Shown: in pieces, positions 10,277-16,324 of the stretch
Layout: each line of letters opens with the position of its first letter
Position numbering within the stretch: the stretch's first letter is position 1
NCBI GenBank assembly: GCA_041744955.1
Contig: JBGTJW010000684.1
Coordinates: forward strand, 1-16,324
Reading direction: 5' to 3'
DNA: 16,324 bases
Origin: Stenomitos sp.
Lineage (GTDB): Bacteria > Cyanobacteriota > Cyanobacteriia > Leptolyngbyales > Leptolyngbyaceae
Made by a program: the position numbers and the translations under genes
Notes under the pieces: generated by a model
Told to the model about the DNA's origin: nothing
Databases searched by the model: none
What the model saw: only the letters and a program-made list of their open reading frames with translations

Positions 10277-10290
10277 CGTTCTGTAGCAAA
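10266..10290. repeat. left copy of the direct repeat flanking the R-M cassette
   Basis: TTTCTTTGT (10266-10274), 9 nt, then TAGCAAA (10284-10290). Compare the right copy at 12253-12279. Confidence 0.4.
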
Positions 10291-10316
10291 TAACTCTTCA
10301 GCCAAAACACTGTTGA

Positions 10317-11372
10317 TTAAATAACAGTATCAAGAAAAGTTAGCTGAGTTGGTGGTTTCACTCGACGTAAATGACTACAGCGACCAGTATTTTGATACTC
10401 TTGAATATCAACTAAAATCTTAGATGCTAATGCTCTACTAAAATTAACAGGAACAGCGTTTCCCACCATCTTATAGCCAGTGGAAATATTATCGTACTTA
10501 AGAATAAAGTCATCTGGAAACGTTTGTATCCTTGCACATTCTCGAACTGAAAGCCTGCGGTATGGCTTAGGAGAGCTTGGATCAAAAATTCGCTTATCTT
10601 GTTCAACAAAAATCATTTTATTGGCTTGAGGGTGAATCGGTGCATGCCGTCCGCCTGCCTGAATAGTAAACGAGGGTTCATCCCAACTTCTAACGCGATT
10701 TCTAGACATATAAATGCTAGAAAAACCCATATCTAAATACTCATGGTTAGCAACTAAAGCCGAATAATTTATTGCCTGCCGACTGGCAACAGGTTCTATA
10801 AGGCTTAAGTCATAAACAGTATCCCTCAAAGTTGGAATTTTGTGATTTTCTTGTGGGAAGCTAAAGGTGCCACCCATATCTTCTCTATAACCCACGATAA
10901 TAACTCTTTGTCTATCCTGAGGTACATTAAAATACTTAGCATTCAGTAGTTTATAAGCTACTTCATAACCTGCATCTTTAAACATATATAGAATATTAGA
11001 AAAAGCATAAGTATGCCTCTCTGAAAGAATACCGCTTACATTTTCAGCTACAAAAAATAGAGGTTTTTTTGCTTGTACAATTCTGATGTATTCATAGAAA
11101 AGTTGCCCTCTAGAATCATTAATGCCTCGCCCAGCGCCTGCCTCGCTCCAGCTTTGGCAGGGCGGTCCGCCGATAATGCCAATGCAATTAGGTATTTCTG
11201 ATGATGGAATGTCTTGTATCGCTCTTCTATCTAGTGTCGTTTCGGTATGATTAAGCTCATAAGTTTCCCAAATTGATTTATCGTTTTCATTTGCCCAATC
11301 GACCTGAAAACCTGCTAGAGAAAAGCCTAAATCTAGACCACCACAACCAGAAAATAAAGATACAACATTCAT
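10317..11372 (-). CDS. type II DNA (cytosine-5)-methyltransferase, M.HaeIII-like (predicted GGCC)
   Basis: C5-MTase motifs in canonical order: I FSGCGGLDLGF, IV GGPPCQSWS, VI FFVAENVSG, VIII QDRQRVIIVG, X GNAVPV. The variable region and flanks (NHEY..SSIYMSRNRVRSWDEPSFTIQAGGRHAPIHPQA, YRRLSVRECARIQTFPDDF) are collinear with my recollection of M.HaeIII. Specificity is inferred, not proven. Confidence 0.93.
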   Translation of the reverse strand: MNVVSLFSGCGGLDLGFSLAGFQVDWANENDKSIWETYELNHTETTLDRRAIQDIPSSEIPNCIGIIGGPPCQSWSEAGAGRGINDSRGQLFYEYIRIVQAKKPLFFVAENVSGILSERHTYAFSNILYMFKDAGYEVAYKLLNAKYFNVPQDRQRVIIVGYREDMGGTFSFPQENHKIPTLRDTVYDLSLIEPVASRQAINYSALVANHEYLDMGFSSIYMSRNRVRSWDEPSFTIQAGGRHAPIHPQANKMIFVEQDKRIFDPSSPKPYRRLSVRECARIQTFPDDFILKYDNISTGYKMVGNAVPVNFSRALASKILVDIQEYQNTGRCSHLRRVKPPTQLTFLDTVI

Positions 11373-11389
11373 AACGTGAGAAAACTAAC

Positions 11390-12238
11390 CTATCTTCTAT
11401 AGCTAATCATTTTTGCGGGAAGAATTTCAACCGGATTATTAGGCGATTTAATTGTGATGCTCTGAATATTAAAGCCTGGTAAAGTTATATTCTCGATCGC
11501 TTTCCTACTTTCTTCTGCAAAGGAAGCATATTTGCTCTCTTTCATTAAAGCAATAATTTGAAAATTTGCATTAGGAGTGTACCCAGAGTCTACATAACTA
11601 AAAGCTCTAGCAGGATTTTCAATGCCCCACATCCCTCTGATTCTTAAATAGGTTATGCCTAAAGGATCTACCTTATTCACTCTACCTAGCTCTTTCGTTA
11701 CGGTGAACTCGACTCCTTGAATTTCAGCAATTCCATTGATTAAGCCATTTCTAGTCTTCTCATAAATTTCTTTGTCTGCGGCATAGCAGTCACCGTAAAT
11801 TAGCCACAGAAGCTTTAACTTTTTTTGATTGATGATGCCGATCGCATAAATAATATCTTTTTCCGTCCAAGCCTCACAATTTCGGCAGGCGCTAATGAGC
11901 ATTGGATTATCAGAAAATAGCTTTGCTTTTGGGTAAGAGCTATTGAGCGCAATTTGAGAGCCGTACGATTCAATTTTCTTTACTTCTACTGCGTCGCCGC
12001 TTTTGATCATTAGATCGGGCGGGTTATTTTGGTTGCCAGCGTATGAAAAGACTTCGGAATACTTCAAAAGTCTCTCATTTTCATCACCTGCGTTCACGGT
12101 GCCTGCAAAAGCATCTTTAATGAAAACTTCAAGGGCATCACCTACACCATTAATTCTATTTTTCCCTTTATAGTGGCTAACTAAATCTGAAATTGGATTG
12201 TGAACAATATTTTGTATAGCTTCTAGGAGATTGCTCAT
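11390..12238 (-). CDS. type II restriction endonuclease, R.NgoPII-like (predicted GGCC)
   Basis: Ends 17 nt upstream of the methyltransferase gene on the same strand. PD-(D/E)XK core NPPDLMIKSGDAVEVKK. Blocks ALNSSYPKAKL, EKDIIYAIGI and ELGRVNKVDPLGITYLRIRGMWGIENP match my memory of the NgoPII family, as does the size (282 aa). The assignment is from memory, not a search. Confidence 0.8.
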   Translation of the reverse strand: MSNLLEAIQNIVHNPISDLVSHYKGKNRINGVGDALEVFIKDAFAGTVNAGDENERLLKYSEVFSYAGNQNNPPDLMIKSGDAVEVKKIESYGSQIALNSSYPKAKLFSDNPMLISACRNCEAWTEKDIIYAIGIINQKKLKLLWLIYGDCYAADKEIYEKTRNGLINGIAEIQGVEFTVTKELGRVNKVDPLGITYLRIRGMWGIENPARAFSYVDSGYTPNANFQIIALMKESKYASFAEESRKAIENITLPGFNIQSITIKSPNNPVEILPAKMISYRR

Positions 12239-12252
12239 AGTAGATGTTGCCG

Positions 12253-12279
12253 TTTCTTTGTAGGGTAGAGTATAGCAAA
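12253..12279. repeat. right copy of the direct repeat flanking the R-M cassette
   Basis: TTTCTTTGT (12253-12261), 11 nt, then TAGCAAA (12273-12279). It overlaps a TATACT -10-like hexamer on the minus strand (12274-12269) upstream of the endonuclease gene. Confidence 0.4.
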
Positions 12280-12542
12280 AGGATTAAGTAGGAGCCGTTT
12301 TCCTGGAGTTCCGTTATTATCCCGCTTCGATTGAGCAAGAGTGGCAGCCAACCCGGGAAGAGCAGGGTGTAAATCTGAAACCAGATGAAGTGAAACGCGC
12401 TGTTGATGTTTCCTTATTCGTCGGATAGCCTGCACATGAAGCACGTACGCAATAACGGATGTTACTGGCACGGGTGCAGCGGAAGTTTGAGGCTGACCAG
12501 AACCGCTAAAATAGGGTGAGAGTCCCAAGCCGTAAAGTTTCT

Positions 12543-14459
12543 ATGACCGTGCGATCGTCCGTTGACTTTTTGGATGCCTTTGATGTGGTGGTGGTCGGAG
12601 CCGGACACGCTGGCTGTGAGGCAGCATTGGCAACGGCGCGGCTGGGCTGCCGCACACTCTTGCTCACCTTAACGTTAGACAAAATCGCGTGGCAGCCGTG
12701 CAATCCTGCGGTGGGTGGTCCGGCGAAGTCTCAACTGGTGCATGAAGTGGATGCGCTGGGCGGCGAAATCGGCAAAATGGCAGACCGCACCTACCTGCAA
12801 AAGCGTGTGCTGAATGCGTCACGCGGTCCGGCGGTATGGGCGCTACGGGCGCAGACGGACAAGCGCGAATATGCGGCTGTCATGAAAACGATCGTGGAAA
12901 ACCAGTTAAACCTGACGATCCGCGAAGGCATGGCAACGGATCTGGTTCTGGGCGAAAACAATGAAATCATTGGTGTGCAAACCTACTTTGGCGTAGCGTT
13001 TCAGTGCAAAGCCGTCGTGTTGACCACAGGCACCTTTTTAGGCGGAAAAATTTGGGTCGGCAATACGTCGATGGCAGCCGGACGCGCGGGAGAATTTGCG
13101 GCTGTTGGGATGACTGAAACGCTCAATCGGCTGGGCTTTGAAACGGGACGGCTGAAAACGGGGACACCTGCCAGGGTCGATCGGCGCTCCGTCGATTTCA
13201 CAAACCTGGAACCTCAACCCGGTGATGCAGACGTGCGCTGGTGTAGCTTCGACCCTAAAGCATGGGTGGTACGGGAGCAAGTGCCCTGTTACCTGACACG
13301 TACGACTGCCGAAACTCATCGCATCATTCGCGAAAACCTCCATCTATCACCTGTTTATGGTGGTTGGGTAGATGCCAAAGGTCCACGCTATTGCCCCAGC
13401 ATTGAAGACAAAATCGTCCGCTTTGCTGATAAGGAAAGCCATCAGATTTTCATTGAGCCAGAAGGACGCGATACACCAGAGCTTTATATTCAGGGCTTTT
13501 CAACGGGCTTGCCAGAAGCGATTCAGTTGCAAATGCTGCGATCGCTCCCCGGATTGGAACACTGCGCCATGCTGCGTCCTGCCTATGCCGTTGAATATGA
13601 CTATCTGCCTGCAACGCAGTGCTACCCCACCCTGATGACCAAAGCGGTTGAAGGGTTATTCTGCGCTGGGCAAATCAATGGCACGACGGGCTATGAAGAA
13701 GCGGCGGCACAGGGACTTGTAGCAGGCATTAATGCGGCTCGGTTGGTGCAAAAGCAGGAGATGATTATTTTCCCGCGTGAGCAAAGCTATATTGGCACCT
13801 TGATTGACGACCTTTGCACAAAAGACTTGCGCGAACCCTACCGAGTGCTGACTTCACGATCGGAGTATCGCCTCCTGCTGCGATCGGACAATGCGGATCA
13901 ACGCCTCACGCCACTGGGTCGAGAAATTGGGCTGATTGACGATCGTCGTTGGCATTTATTCACCCATAAACAAGAACGGATCGTTGCTGAAAAAGAGCGG
14001 CTGCATGAAACTCGTGTGAAAGAACATGATGAACTGGGTCAAAGAATTGCAGCGCACACGCAGCAGGCAATTAAAGGTTCGCTGACTTTAGCCGATTTGC
14101 TGCGGAAGCCAGGGTTTCACTACGCCAATTTAGAACAGTTTGGGTTGGGCAATGCAGAGTGCGATCGCGCCGAAAAAGAAGGGGCTGAAATTGACATTAA
14201 ATATGCCGGGTATATTCAACGGCAACAGCACCAAATTGACGCGATCGTCCGTCAAGAACATCGCAAACTACCACCCGATTTAGACTACAGTGCGATCGCC
14301 ACACTCTCTAAAGAATCCCGCGAAAAGCTGGCGAAAGTGCAGCCTCTCACAATTGGACAGGCAACTCGCATTGGGGGTGTCAATCCTGCTGATGTGAATG
14401 CGTTACTTGTATACCTCGAAATCCAGGCACGTCAGCAAGCGGAAGCGGGAGTTTTATGA
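12543..14459 (+). CDS. mnmG: tRNA uridine 5-carboxymethylaminomethyl modification enzyme MnmG (GidA)
   Basis: Start set at ATG 12543; the track start 12516 is GTG. FAD motif [17 protein letters not shown], then [67 protein letters not shown] and [14 protein letters not shown] are all classic MnmG blocks. Confidence 0.96.
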
Positions 14460-14460
14460 C

Positions 14461-14532
14461 GGCGTTTACTGTCATGATGTAGGTCGTTTCATCAAGAATG
14501 TGCTGTAGATATTCATGAGCCGACGGAGACAT
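14461..14532 (-). pseudogene. 5' remnant of a HEPN/DUF86 toxin gene (only about 20-24 codons retained)
   Basis: ATG at 14532-14530 overlaps the end of the MNT reading frame by 20 nt, the usual operon geometry. MSPSAHEYLQHILDETTYIM matches the DUF86 N-terminal YLQ.IL....I pattern. The frame then runs antisense into the mnmG 3' end with no further resemblance. Confidence 0.5.
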
Positions 14533-14913
14533 ACTCGACCTCATCTAAAATATGTGAACCAATATAAGGACTCAATGACTCGACAGTAATGAACGTCAGT
14601 TCGGGCTAAGAACGCTGATACGGTGCTGATCGGCTGAAACGTCGCAAACACGTTGGCGAAGACTTGACATCGACAACGGTGGCATAAGGGTTTCAGCTTA
14701 TCCCGAACTCAGGTTAATGAGGTCAACTGCTCTGCCAAAAAGATCTTCTAGAAAAAAGGATAGGGGTATAAAGTTATCAAATGTTTTCTGAGCTGGCTCA
14801 AAAGTAACCAAGATATCAACATCACTTTGAGGATGAATTGCGGTGTCACGGGCAAACGAGCCGAAGAAACATCGGTTGTCCTTACGATCCGAGTGAATGA
14901 GGGGCAGGGTTTT
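14513..14913 (-). pseudogene. MNT-type nucleotidyltransferase (antitoxin of a HEPN/MNT pair), interrupted by a MITE and lacking a usable start
   Basis: A frame absent from the ORF track reads ...DNRCFFGSFARDTAIHPQSDVDILVTFEPAQKTFDNFIPLSFFLEDLFGRAVDLIN.. and meets a stop at 14698-14700. The C-terminal part ..TVESLSPYIGSHILDEVEYVSVGS* resumes at 14586-14513 in another frame. The GS..R...D.D motif is the minimal nucleotidyltransferase signature. Only 15 codons separate an upstream in-frame TGA (14916-14914) from FFGS, and they hold no ATG/GTG/TTG. Confidence 0.65.
14593..14714. mobile_element. 122-bp MITE-like insertion with 18-bp imperfect TIRs and a 6-bp target-site duplication
   Basis: Left end ACGTCAGTTCGGGCTAAG (14593-14610). 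The right end CTTATCCCGAACTCAGGT (14697-14714) has the reverse complement ACCTGAGTTCGGGATAAG, 15/18 identical to the left end. Flanking direct repeat TAATGA at 14587-14592 and 14715-14720. Second internal inverted pair GCTGAAAC (14633-14640) / GTTTCAGC (14690-14697). No coding capacity. Confidence 0.6.
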
Positions 14914-16324
14914 TCAGTCCGTCTGGCACCTCTTTGCCCTTGTATCGACTCAAACGCTTGTTGAAGTAACGCCATACTACCTGACCCAAAATGTAGGGTT
15001 GAAACAACGCGATCGAGGGTTTAAGCAAGTGCAGCACTTCCATAAACGTACGGTAGACCCTGGCTCGATCAACGATTAGTTCCAGCACTTGATCCCAATA
15101 CCAATTCAGAAACTCAGTCACTGCATTAATCGGCTTGCCCTGCGTGTTGCGGTAACGGTAGTCTGCACCCGTTGCCACTAACCAAGCCTCCTGATGTGCC
15201 TTGGCTAATTGTTGTTGCAGGCGGCGGGTGTGGTGCTCAAGTTGGTTAATTCCGTGGTGCTGAAAGAATTGATCTAACAGCACGGCTTCAAGTGCAGCCA
15301 CGGTCATGGCTTGTCCATAGGTGGGATTCAGCGAGCAACCTGCATGTCCCACCACAATAAAATGAGCGGGTGCGTGGGAGCGCCGTGCATAATCGCGCAA
15401 GCGATTTTCGTTGCCGTAATGGGCATAGATGGGCGTAAGGGGTGTGCCTTGTTCAATTACCTCTGCCAAAATTGGGGTGGGTAGACTGCGCGCAAAGGCT
15501 AAAAAGCCAGCTTCATCAGTGGGAGGATAATCGCGATCGCCGCCGACCAAACTGACAATCCAACGCCTGCTATGGGGATTGGAGCGATCGCCCTCAATGG
15601 GAAAAATGACTCCACCGCGTTGCCGCTGAGGCGGGGCAGATGGCACAAACAGCATTTTCCAATCTACAACTAGATCGGCTGGAGGCTGATAGATGCGGGC
15701 AACATAGCCCACAAACGCATCAACTTCTGTTTCGGGTGGTGGCTCATAGCCCAAGGCACTCAACCATTGCGGCGCGTGGGAGGCTTTGCCACTCGCATCT
15801 ACAATCAGATCGGCATAGAGTGACTCAGTGGCTTGAGAGGTCGCACCTGCATGCTGATGCAGCGATACCCCCACAATTTTTGTGTGCTCTGTATCTGTTA
15901 ACAAGCCGGTAACGCTAGTTCCTTGCAAAAATTGCACCCTGGGAAAGGCTGCTAGGCGACGGCGAATCCCCCAGTCCAATAAGTCTCGGCTACAGGTAAA
16001 GAGCCGCAAGTCTGAGGCACACCGAGTCGTCCACCCAGCGGCGGTCAAAAACGCCATGTCTTGCAGACTGTCTACCACGATCGCGCCCTCCGCCACTAGG
16101 TCTGCTTGAAGCCCTGGGAAGAACTGTTCTAAAATTTGTTGCCCCCGGAGCATGAGGCTGTGTGGAAAGCGAGAGTGAGGCAATCCCTTACGAGGCGAGG
16201 GCTGATCCGGATAAAGATCACGTTCTACAAGGGTGACGCGATCGAAATGGTTTGCCAGGGATCGACTGACTAACAGTCCTGCAAAACTACCGCCAATGAC
16301 TAACGCATGAGTCTTGTGTCGCAT
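14882..16324 (-). CDS. FAD-dependent oxidoreductase/monooxygenase-like protein
   Basis: 480 aa. The ATG lies at the window edge (16324-16322) and the dinucleotide-binding motif HALVIGGSFAGLL..VTLVERD follows immediately, so the N-terminus is probably complete. Later blocks LIVDASG and GHAGCSLNPTYGQAMTVA fit the flavoprotein monooxygenase fold. Substrate unknown. Confidence 0.8.
   Translation of the reverse strand: MRHKTHALVIGGSFAGLLVSRSLANHFDRVTLVERDLYPDQPSPRKGLPHSRFPHSLMLRGQQILEQFFPGLQADLVAEGAIVVDSLQDMAFLTAAGWTTRCASDLRLFTCSRDLLDWGIRRRLAAFPRVQFLQGTSVTGLLTDTEHTKIVGVSLHQHAGATSQATESLYADLIVDASGKASHAPQWLSALGYEPPPETEVDAFVGYVARIYQPPADLVVDWKMLFVPSAPPQRQRGGVIFPIEGDRSNPHSRRWIVSLVGGDRDYPPTDEAGFLAFARSLPTPILAEVIEQGTPLTPIYAHYGNENRLRDYARRSHAPAHFIVVGHAGCSLNPTYGQAMTVAALEAVLLDQFFQHHGINQLEHHTRRLQQQLAKAHQEAWLVATGADYRYRNTQGKPINAVTEFLNWYWDQVLELIVDRARVYRTFMEVLHLLKPSIALFQPYILGQVVWRYFNKRLSRYKGKEVPDGLKNPAPHSLGS

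Follow-up and report, generated by a model that had tools for sequence, protein, structure and literature searches.

Positions 14593-14714 of the 16,324-bp contig JBGTJW010000684.1 of the cyanobacterium Stenomitos sp. (assembly GCA_041744955.1; this whole stretch is hereafter the window) are almost certainly occupied by a transposable element of the miniature inverted-repeat type (MITE). The element is inserted in a fragment of an antitoxin gene of the MNT family, has numerous relatives in other cyanobacterial genomes, and carries ends that are characteristic of insertion sequences (IS) of the IS982 family. From comparisons of sequences, the complete explanation appears very likely to be correct, namely, that a MITE of a cyanobacterial family, mobilized in trans by an IS982-family transposase, landed in an mntA-type open reading frame (ORF).

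A MITE in an antitoxin gene fragment

The ends of the element, ACGTCAGTTCGGGCTAAG and CTTATCCCGAACTCAGGT, are inverted repeats that match at 15 of 18 positions, and a repeat search shows that the match can be extended to 22 nt at 82%. The features that are relevant to the insertion and its host sequence are the following.

14587..14592, plus strand: target-site duplication (TSD), copy 1, TAATGA; in the coding direction of the MNT fragment it is TCATTA, of which a homologous module of Leptolyngbya sp. FACHB-321 (L132) has a single one here
14593..14714, no strand assigned: MITE of 122 bp, subfamily '122A', non-coding, with IS982-type ends, as judged by family comparison
14593..14610, plus strand: left terminal inverted repeat (TIR), ACGTCAGTTCGGGCTAAG; the left end of the family is ACGTCAGTTCGGG, exact in most of the copies listed
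14697..14714, minus strand: right TIR, ACCTGAGTTCGGGATAAG in minus-strand reading; IS982-family elements have ends with the same 18 nt
14715..14720, plus strand: TSD, copy 2, TAATGA, a perfect match to copy 1
14721..14865, minus strand: upstream part of the MNT (MntA-type nucleotidyltransferase antitoxin) fragment, defined by a match to PF01909 from profile position 18, by protein alignment, and by the end of DNA homology to L132 at 14865
14513..14592, minus strand: downstream part of the MNT fragment, TVESLSPYIGSHILDEVEYVSVGS plus the stop codon, out of frame with the upstream part owing to the insertion
14470..14532, minus strand: N-terminal ~21 codons of the HepT (HEPN) toxin gene, MSPSAHEYLQHILDETTYIMT..., identified in DNA alignments to three homologous loci (L129, L131 and L132); the homology ends abruptly at 14470

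As a control for chance, we searched for any 18-nt inverted repeat that matches at 15 or more positions, has its arms 60-300 bp apart and is flanked by a perfect 6-bp direct repeat; the window has a single one, the 122-bp element at 14593, and 30 dinucleotide-preserving shuffles yielded none. The element is overlapped only by chance ORFs of at most 36 aa, and no second copy or TIR-like site above the chance level was detected in the window.

With the element in place, the minus-strand frame reads ...FGRAVDLI and runs into the element, where it continues as NLSSG and ends. The insertion adds 128 bp, which is not a multiple of 3, and hence causes a frameshift and a premature stop. When positions 14593-14720 (128 bp) are excised, the minus-strand reading becomes ...FGRAVDLITVESLSPYIGSHILDEVEYVSVGS followed by a stop, and the Pfam NTP_transf_2 match grows from profile positions 18-73 (39.0 bits) to positions 18-92 of 93 (45.6 bits, PF01909, cut-off 21), with the G-S...D-x-D motif present as FGSFARD...SDVDILV. 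The restored sequence of 80 aa has 442 homologues at E <= 1e-5, the best of which are 85-91% identical and 104-107 aa long; all those listed match both PF01909 and PF18765. Each of the 11 homologues that were aligned is uninterrupted at the junction (...FGR[AT][VI]DL[ILV]T[VI]ESLSPYI...), and the closest one (P0001) is the same as the restored sequence from FGRAVDLITVESLSPYIGSHILDEVEYVS onward. The NCBIfam MntA score, 42 bits, is below the cut-off of 60, as expected because the host sequence is a fragment.

An empty version of the site is available at the DNA level as well. The module of Leptolyngbya sp. FACHB-321 reads ...GTTGACC TCATTA CTATCGAG..., with a single TCATTA, where the window has TCATTA, 122 bp and a second TCATTA; after excision, 268 bp of the window align to this module without gaps at 94.4% identity. 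The mnmG gene of the same strain is 93.5% identical to that of the window in DNA (99% in protein), so that the empty copy is as diverged as orthologous genes are. Thus, the element, its imperfect repeats and the perfect TAATGA duplication, all of which had been proposed in a sequence-only reading of this DNA, are exact in position and sequence, and the proposals that the insertion introduces a frameshift with a stop and that excision of 128 bp restores the MNT C-terminus in frame are borne out by the profile match, the aligned proteins and the FACHB-321 module; the presence of the segment in intact homologues, which that reading had named as a refuting observation, is not seen in the proteins aligned.

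These same observations bear on the possibility that the insertion is an artefact of assembly, or a chimera, in the source contig. Abrupt homology breaks indeed flank the toxin-antitoxin (TA) fragment (14469/14470 and 14865-14870), and mis-assembly at repeats could cause such breaks. However, a perfect TSD, complete family-typical ends and exact restoration of the frame are not made by assemblers, and the repeats found in the window lie at neither break, which makes an artefact improbable in the extreme.

The host sequence is a relic of an MNT-HepT module

The sequence-only reading had the element caught in an antitoxin gene. The host is, indeed, MNT sequence, but not an intact gene: it is a fragment truncated at the 5' end, and its toxin partner is reduced to ~21 codons. 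Homology to intact MNT-HepT modules is confined to positions 14470-14865 minus the MITE (268 bp). The upstream MNT part begins at about codon 28 of the intact homologues and has no start codon, the ~27 N-terminal residues that are missing being MPVQTK...FGV.RCG in these homologues; what survives is MNT from codon ~28 to the end and HepT codons ~1-21, rather than a pair of complete tandem ORFs. No Pfam match was obtained for the HepT fragment; in the intact homologous modules (three loci compared), a PF01934 HepT-like gene follows MNT. Given that both MNT and HepT are truncated between two homology junctions, this is a pseudogene regardless of the MITE, and because the disrupted sequence is a gene fragment in any case, no phenotype is expected and the insertion matters little for the locus. 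The host, thus, resembles the type VII MNT-HepT (MntA/HepT) modules in its PF01909/PF18765 and NCBIfam MntA matches and in its identity of up to 91% to their proteins, and differs from them in consisting of a partial MNT split by a MITE, with neither a start codon nor a functional toxin. A weak likeness to a decayed MNT N-terminus upstream of 14865 ('QTD*KTLPL') was considered and rejected: this stretch is the conserved 3' end of the neighbouring oxidoreductase gene, which is present also in an orthologous locus (L138).

Decay of the toxin is seen in two of the three homologous modules as well, where the HepT gene is shortened to 51 aa (L131, 4122-4277) and 67 aa (L132, 4290-4493), compared with 108 aa in L129, whereas MNT is intact. 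On sequence grounds, toxin loss appears to be recurrent in this MNT-HepT family and would render a later loss of the antitoxin neutral.

A family of short elements across cyanobacteria

The element has many relatives. A blastn search of the PLSDB plasmids with 134 bp yielded matches in Nostoc flagelliforme, Nostoc sp. ATCC 53789, Nostoc sp. C052, Microcystis aeruginosa, Acaryochloris marina and Cyanobacterium sp. HL-69; five of these are complete elements of 101-122 bp with conserved ends and variable interiors, and the ATCC 53789 match consists of the right half only. In a collection of species-representative genomes, we scanned for the right-end pattern AGCTTATCCYRAACTCAGGTT, for which, by our own estimate, about one chance match is expected, and found at least 116 stretches carrying it. 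Most of the matches listed come from cyanobacteria of several orders (Nostoc, Calothrix, Scytonema, Mastigocoleus, Kaiparowitsia with at least 10, Lyngbya, Stenomitos, Acaryochloris, Xenococcaceae, Chroococcus, Hyella and others), and a few from elsewhere (Thiothrix, Nitrosomonas communis, Methyloprofundus, Neptunicella and Bacteroidales). Viral contigs gave no match to this pattern.

When a complete short element is defined by a left end that departs from ACGTCAGTTCGGG at two positions at most and is located no more than 320 bp upstream of a right-end match, there are at least 93 such elements (92 and the window copy), at different loci. The TSDs and lengths given below are those of the copies listed. 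Exact duplications are 6 bp long in 35 copies, 7 bp in 15, 8 bp in five and 9 bp in one, so that 6 bp is the mode (35 of the 56 copies with an exact duplication of 6-9 bp); in the remaining 37 copies, the exact flanking repeat is 5 bp or shorter, and several of these extend to 6-8 bp once a single mismatch is tolerated. If one mismatch is allowed, 41 copies have a 6-bp duplication, and their targets have the consensus TANNTA (T at position 1 in 41/41, A at position 2 in 37/41, T at position 5 in 34/41 and A at position 6 in 37/41). The duplications of 7 and 8 bp, too, mostly start with TA and end with TA, for an overall target of TA-N(2-4)-TA.

Common to the members of the family are a left end of ~20 nt (ACGTCAGTTCGGGnTAAG) and a right end of ~30 nt (...GGGTTTCAGCTTATCCCGAACTCAGGT); the sequences in between vary. 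On all the sequence criteria, these elements form a MITE superfamily. The commonest length class is 122 bp; the window copy agrees with the consensus of all 35 distinct 122-bp copies at 91 of 122 positions, and its subfamily is common to Nostocales and Lyngbya. A scan of a metagenome collection with the subfamily core recovered only four copies, all in the assembly of Lyngbya sp. HA4199-MV5, two of them coinciding with copies of the genome scan, L026 and L015 (86% and 78% identical to the window copy, respectively).

The two ends of these elements are not equivalent. In most of the copies, the left end reads ACGTCAG and the right end ACCTGAG, as in the TIRs of IS982, a C/G swap at positions 3 and 5 (in the window, 14593-14599 versus 14708-14714); a minority have ACCTCAG or ACCTGAG at the left end. 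Several longer copies of 170-284 bp (L009, L038, L067 and others) look like standard MITEs with nested insertions or internal short tandem repeats (runs of GGACAAT, AAGCTAT or GCTGAAG), a sign of secondary growth of the elements. At the other extreme, in Bacteroidales UBA5342 (L031, ~6454), a unit of 36 bp is hardly more than the two TIRs joined back to back (ACCTGAGTTCGGTATAAGCT...AGCTTATCCCGAACTCAGGT), which could be either a minimal derivative or a juxtaposition by chance.

The probable connection to IS982

The length of the TSD had been taken, in the sequence-only reading, as a hint at the family of the mobilizing transposase and copies elsewhere in relatives had been anticipated; the copies exist, most of them with TSDs of their own and 6 bp the modal length, and the hint leads to IS982, full-length IS with matching TIRs having been found. 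The element family that the same reading placed in this genome is seen in relatives, including the four same-subfamily copies of Lyngbya sp. HA4199-MV5. Outside cyanobacteria, the right-end motif is part of an IS982-family element at three loci: complete elements of ~1 kb with perfect ACCTGAGTTCGGGATAAG inverted repeats in Thiothrix (L022, 992 bp) and Nitrosomonas (L044, 997 bp), and a partial copy in a metagenome-assembled genome (MAG) of Pseudomonadota (L011). The ORFs of the Thiothrix and Nitrosomonas elements score 252 and 166 bits, respectively, with the NCBIfam model NF033520, 'IS982 family transposase' (cut-off 130). A tblastn search of plasmids with the Thiothrix protein brought up IS982-family transposases in cyanobacteria, including Nostoc flagelliforme, Nostoc sp. 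C052, Leptolyngbya boryana, Cyanobacterium sp. Dongsha4, Pseudanabaena galeata and others. The element on plasmid pC052_B of Nostoc sp. C052 (L125) is 961 bp long, has the ends ACCTGAGTTCGGGATAAGG and ACCTGAGTTCGGGTTAAGC and a 6-bp TSD of the TANNTA type, TATGTA, and encodes a transposase, WP_179064888.1, that is annotated in RefSeq as an IS982 family transposase; the same strain has a 112-bp MITE of the family (L006) on plasmid pC052_A. Altogether, the full-length, transposase-encoding elements are 961-997 bp long, with the TIR ACCTGAGTTCGGG[A/T]TAAG, and the right end of the MITE is identical at 18 of 18 positions to the ends of the elements in Nostoc sp. C052, Thiothrix and Nitrosomonas. 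In five full-length IS982 elements, two of which have more divergent TIRs, the TSDs are 4, 6, 7, 8 and 8 bp long, largely overlapping the MITE range of 6-9 bp. The TSD of IS982 is variable, 3-9 bp according to ISfinder, consistent with these lengths.

In view of the identity of the TIRs, the behaviour of the TSDs and the co-occurrence in Nostoc sp. C052, we infer that an IS982-family transposase of the DDE type is probably what mobilizes this MITE family in trans. Such a transposase would bind both TIRs of the non-autonomous element, and integration at a staggered cut would duplicate 6 bp, sometimes 7-8 bp, of a TA-N(2-4)-TA-like target, in this case, TAATGA. The MITE would, then, have landed in the 3' third of the mntA-type antitoxin ORF of a type VII MNT-HepT module, adding 128 bp, shifting the frame and introducing the premature stop, and truncations, before or after the insertion, would have reduced the module to the 268-bp fragment. 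The MITE and the IS982-family elements, such as those of Nostoc sp. C052 (961 bp), Thiothrix and Nitrosomonas communis, share, in this comparison, the terminal 18 nt ACCTGAGTTCGGGATAAG, ends that start with AC and an overlapping range of TSD lengths; the MITE differs from these IS of ~1 kb in its length of 122 bp, the lack of a transposase gene, an unrelated interior and the conserved two-base variant of the left end, ACGTCAG.

Several observations weigh against the explanation proposed here, in whole or in part. The similarity between the MITE and the IS982 elements is limited to the terminal 18-24 nt, so that it is the TIRs and the TSD that make up the link to IS982, and it follows, too, that the MITE is not a simple deletion derivative of any IS examined. 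Even at the termini, the left end ACGTCAG departs from the IS TIR, ACCTGAG, at two positions in most of the copies listed. An IS982-family transposase gene is missing from the window and from the surroundings, out to ~8 kb, of all the cyanobacterial MITE copies compared. The target in the window, TAATGA, deviates from the TANNTA consensus at position 5. The closest copy among the matches listed, L026, is only 86% identical to that in the window, and divergence is seen also among the four copies of this subfamily in Lyngbya sp. HA4199-MV5; hence there is no sign of recent activity. Finally, the FACHB-321 module adjoins Y1 and DDE_3 transposase genes, a context unlike that in the window, and is, therefore, a homologous empty site, not a demonstrably orthologous one.

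Two alternative origins should be weighed against this evidence. The MITE could have been mobilized by a transposase of another family, for example, IS630, IS5 or IS1634, the likeness of its TIRs to those of IS982 being coincidental or convergent. The lack of IS982 transposase genes near the cyanobacterial copies would fit, and an IS630 transposase gene is located ~350 bp from the Nostoc flagelliforme plasmid copy. Nevertheless, this is improbable, considering that the right end of the MITE is perfectly matched by IS982 ends in three phylogenetically distant hosts, that its TSDs of 6-8 bp fall within the 4-8 bp range of the full-length IS982 elements, and that an IS982 element and a MITE reside together in Nostoc sp. 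C052; moreover, the TSD of IS630 is TA, 2 bp (ISfinder), which counts against IS630 as the mobilizer. Alternatively, a full-length IS982 element could have inserted at this locus, to be reduced in place to 122 bp by internal deletion. MITEs are generally held to arise from internal deletions of IS, and the TIRs of the element match IS982 ends. A deletion in place is, however, quite improbable inasmuch as homologous interiors, in copies of exactly 122 bp in total, occur at unrelated loci in many genomes, including Nostoc, Calothrix, Scytonema, Mastigocoleus and Lyngbya, mostly with TSDs of their own, and past the first 18-24 nt, the interior is unlike that of every IS982 element examined. Transposition of a ready-made short element by an IS982-family transposase, thus, remains the preferred explanation.

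The 21-nt right-end motif is exact in 11 of the loci (L011, L012, L018, L022, L023, L029, L031, L044, L058, L065 and L073), the hosts being Thiothrix, Nitrosomonas communis, Methyloprofundus, Neptunicella, a Pseudomonadota MAG and Bacteroidales/Bacteroidetes MAGs; the Bacteroidales MITEs with this motif are 242-264 bp long. This distribution points to a putative subgroup of IS982 with very conserved ends, spread across phyla.

The window copy can serve as a well-defined reference that ties a widespread cyanobacterial MITE family to IS982-type ends and defines its target, TA-N2-4-TA, with a duplication of 6-8 bp. In genome annotation, the signature ACGTCAGTTCGGGnTAAG ... AGCTTATCCyrAACTCAGGT could be used for masking repeats and for spotting split genes.

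Folding of the element

A long hairpin formed by GCTGAAAC and GTTTCAGC had been predicted from the sequence. As far as thermodynamics goes, this prediction stands: the DNA fold of the element has a minimum free energy of -21.6 kcal/mol, with z = -2.5 compared to shuffles (z = -1.65 for the RNA fold), the centroid structure includes the GCTGAAAC/GTTTCAGC helix, and across 18 copies of the subfamily, the share of cells in which a helix forms is 89% for this one and 98% for the TIR helix. Evolutionary support for the hairpin is another matter: in the same 18 copies, there is no compensatory change in these helices, the shuffle control not being exceeded, and RNAalifold detects no covariation beyond the pairing of the TIRs (covariation term, +0.05 kcal/mol). 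With sequence conservation alone and no covariation, a selected RNA or DNA structure is not supported beyond inverted-repeat pairing.

It is conceivable, in principle, that the 122 bp function through their structure, be it as a small RNA, as a terminator or regulatory hairpin, or as a REP-like sequence, and that they are kept for their fold and were not transposed; the DNA fold, the position between convergent genes and the discrete length classes of the family (see below) all would be compatible with such a role. Yet, a search of Rfam over 14450-14850 with E up to 10 gave no match, a scan for promoter and terminator consensus sequences found no promoter-like or terminator-like site, and the copies show neither covariation nor compensatory change, whereas duplicated targets and a coding frame that is restored cleanly by excision are typical marks of transposition. 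Such a role is, accordingly, most improbable, and the MITE interpretation is retained.

Length classes

The lengths of the listed copies are unevenly distributed: the abundant classes are 101 bp (15 copies), 112 bp (four), 122 bp (39) and 132/133 bp (nine), in steps of about one helical turn of DNA, and off-phase lengths are mostly singletons (loci L002-L123). A second 122-bp subfamily (L010, L024, L034, L061, L072, L095, L102, L107, L110, L113, L118 and L123), which includes many copies from Kaiparowitsia implicata, has two GC-rich perfect hairpins, GGGGCATCGCGCGACGCGCGATGCCCC and GTGCCGTGCGCGTCGCGCACGGCAC, and an interior largely unlike that of the AT-rich subfamily in the window, with the same total length. 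Clustering of the interiors, which was applied to count independent subfamilies, turned out to be too permissive, and the number of truly independent subfamilies is small. A length periodicity that resembles these MITE length classes was reportedly seen in very short IS50 derivatives by Goryshin et al. in 1994. The classes could mean that the two IS982-type ends have to share the same helical phase for synapsis on short DNA, and the elements may also represent a pan-cyanobacterial superfamily of IS982-linked MITEs, undescribed in the literature searched, with a 21-nt end that is exact in Proteobacteria and Bacteroidota; we put this forward tentatively, as a conjecture that is more apt to fail than to hold. 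If it is true, a natural MITE family records the twist constraint on transpososome assembly, and the discrete length classes, if real, amount to a natural data set on the minimum transposon length for synapsis.

Relation to known MITEs

MITEs are abundant in cyanobacteria (PMC3184786, PMC11602168, PMC10969869), and large censuses, such as that in PMC11602168, very probably contain the elements described here unnamed; our literature search for an IS982-linked cyanobacterial MITE or for the TIR string found nothing specific. The Nezha MITE of Anabaena variabilis and Nostoc sp. PCC 7120 (Zhou et al. 2008), the best known among small MITEs of cyanobacteria, is described in PMC3184786 and PMC6042816 as an element of ~130-170 bp with TIRs and direct repeats at A+T-rich sites that is thought to be mobilized by an ISNpu3-like IS of another strain. 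Nezha, thus, resembles the window MITE in being cyanobacterial, similar in size and equipped with TIRs and direct repeats. However, the direct repeat of the Nezha reference copy is 10 bp long (CATTATCTAC; PMC6042816), compared with 6-8 bp in the family of the window MITE, a comparison made by repeat length; on this length (6 bp in the window versus 10 bp), identity of the window element with Nezha was rejected.

Bacterial MITEs that disrupt genes include, as cited in PMC10969869, those in the mcy genes of Anabaena (Fewer et al. 2011) and the Correia elements of Neisseria. Like the window MITE, these are small non-coding elements with TIRs and TSDs that inactivate coding sequences and far outnumber their autonomous partners; they belong to other sequence families, with partner IS of other families, and the host gene in the window was, or became, a pseudogene fragment.

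Genomic neighbourhood

The TA fragment lies between two convergent genes, bounded by the homology breaks at 14469/14470 and 14865-14870.

12516..14459, plus strand: mnmG; homology to the mnmG loci of close relatives reaches 14469, abutting the TA fragment
14882..16324, minus strand: FAD-dependent oxidoreductase, UbiH-like; homology to the L138 orthologue spans 14870-16324

On the oxidoreductase side, the TA fragment starts within ~5 bp of the homology boundary (14865-14870). In close relatives (FACHB-592, FACHB-321, and JGI and ENA contigs), mnmG is followed by a gene of the Uma2 family, not by the TA fragment, and the L138 oxidoreductase orthologue, 91% identical in DNA, has unrelated sequence downstream. 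No strictly orthologous empty site was found beside mnmG or the oxidoreductase gene in the relatives compared; since these have no MNT-HepT module beside either gene, the locus is not syntenic and represents a synteny breakpoint.

Elsewhere in the window, positions 1043-1186 contain direct repeats with a 15-nt period (GGTGACGCGATGAAG-like) within an ORF of 90 aa (920-1192) that yields no Pfam match and encodes a repetitive peptide of the G-D-A-M-K type. Upstream of mnmG, a block of ~2.2 kb (10277-12491) has no counterpart in the closest relatives (FACHB-592, FACHB-321, JGI and ENA contigs), whose loci are collinear in other respects and have a phycobilisome-protein gene directly before mnmG. 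In the block lie genes for a C-5 cytosine DNA methylase (PF00145, 297 bits) and for an NgoPII-type restriction endonuclease (PF09521, 388 bits), together with an ORF of 97 aa; it looks like a strain-specific insertion of a predicted type II restriction-modification system.

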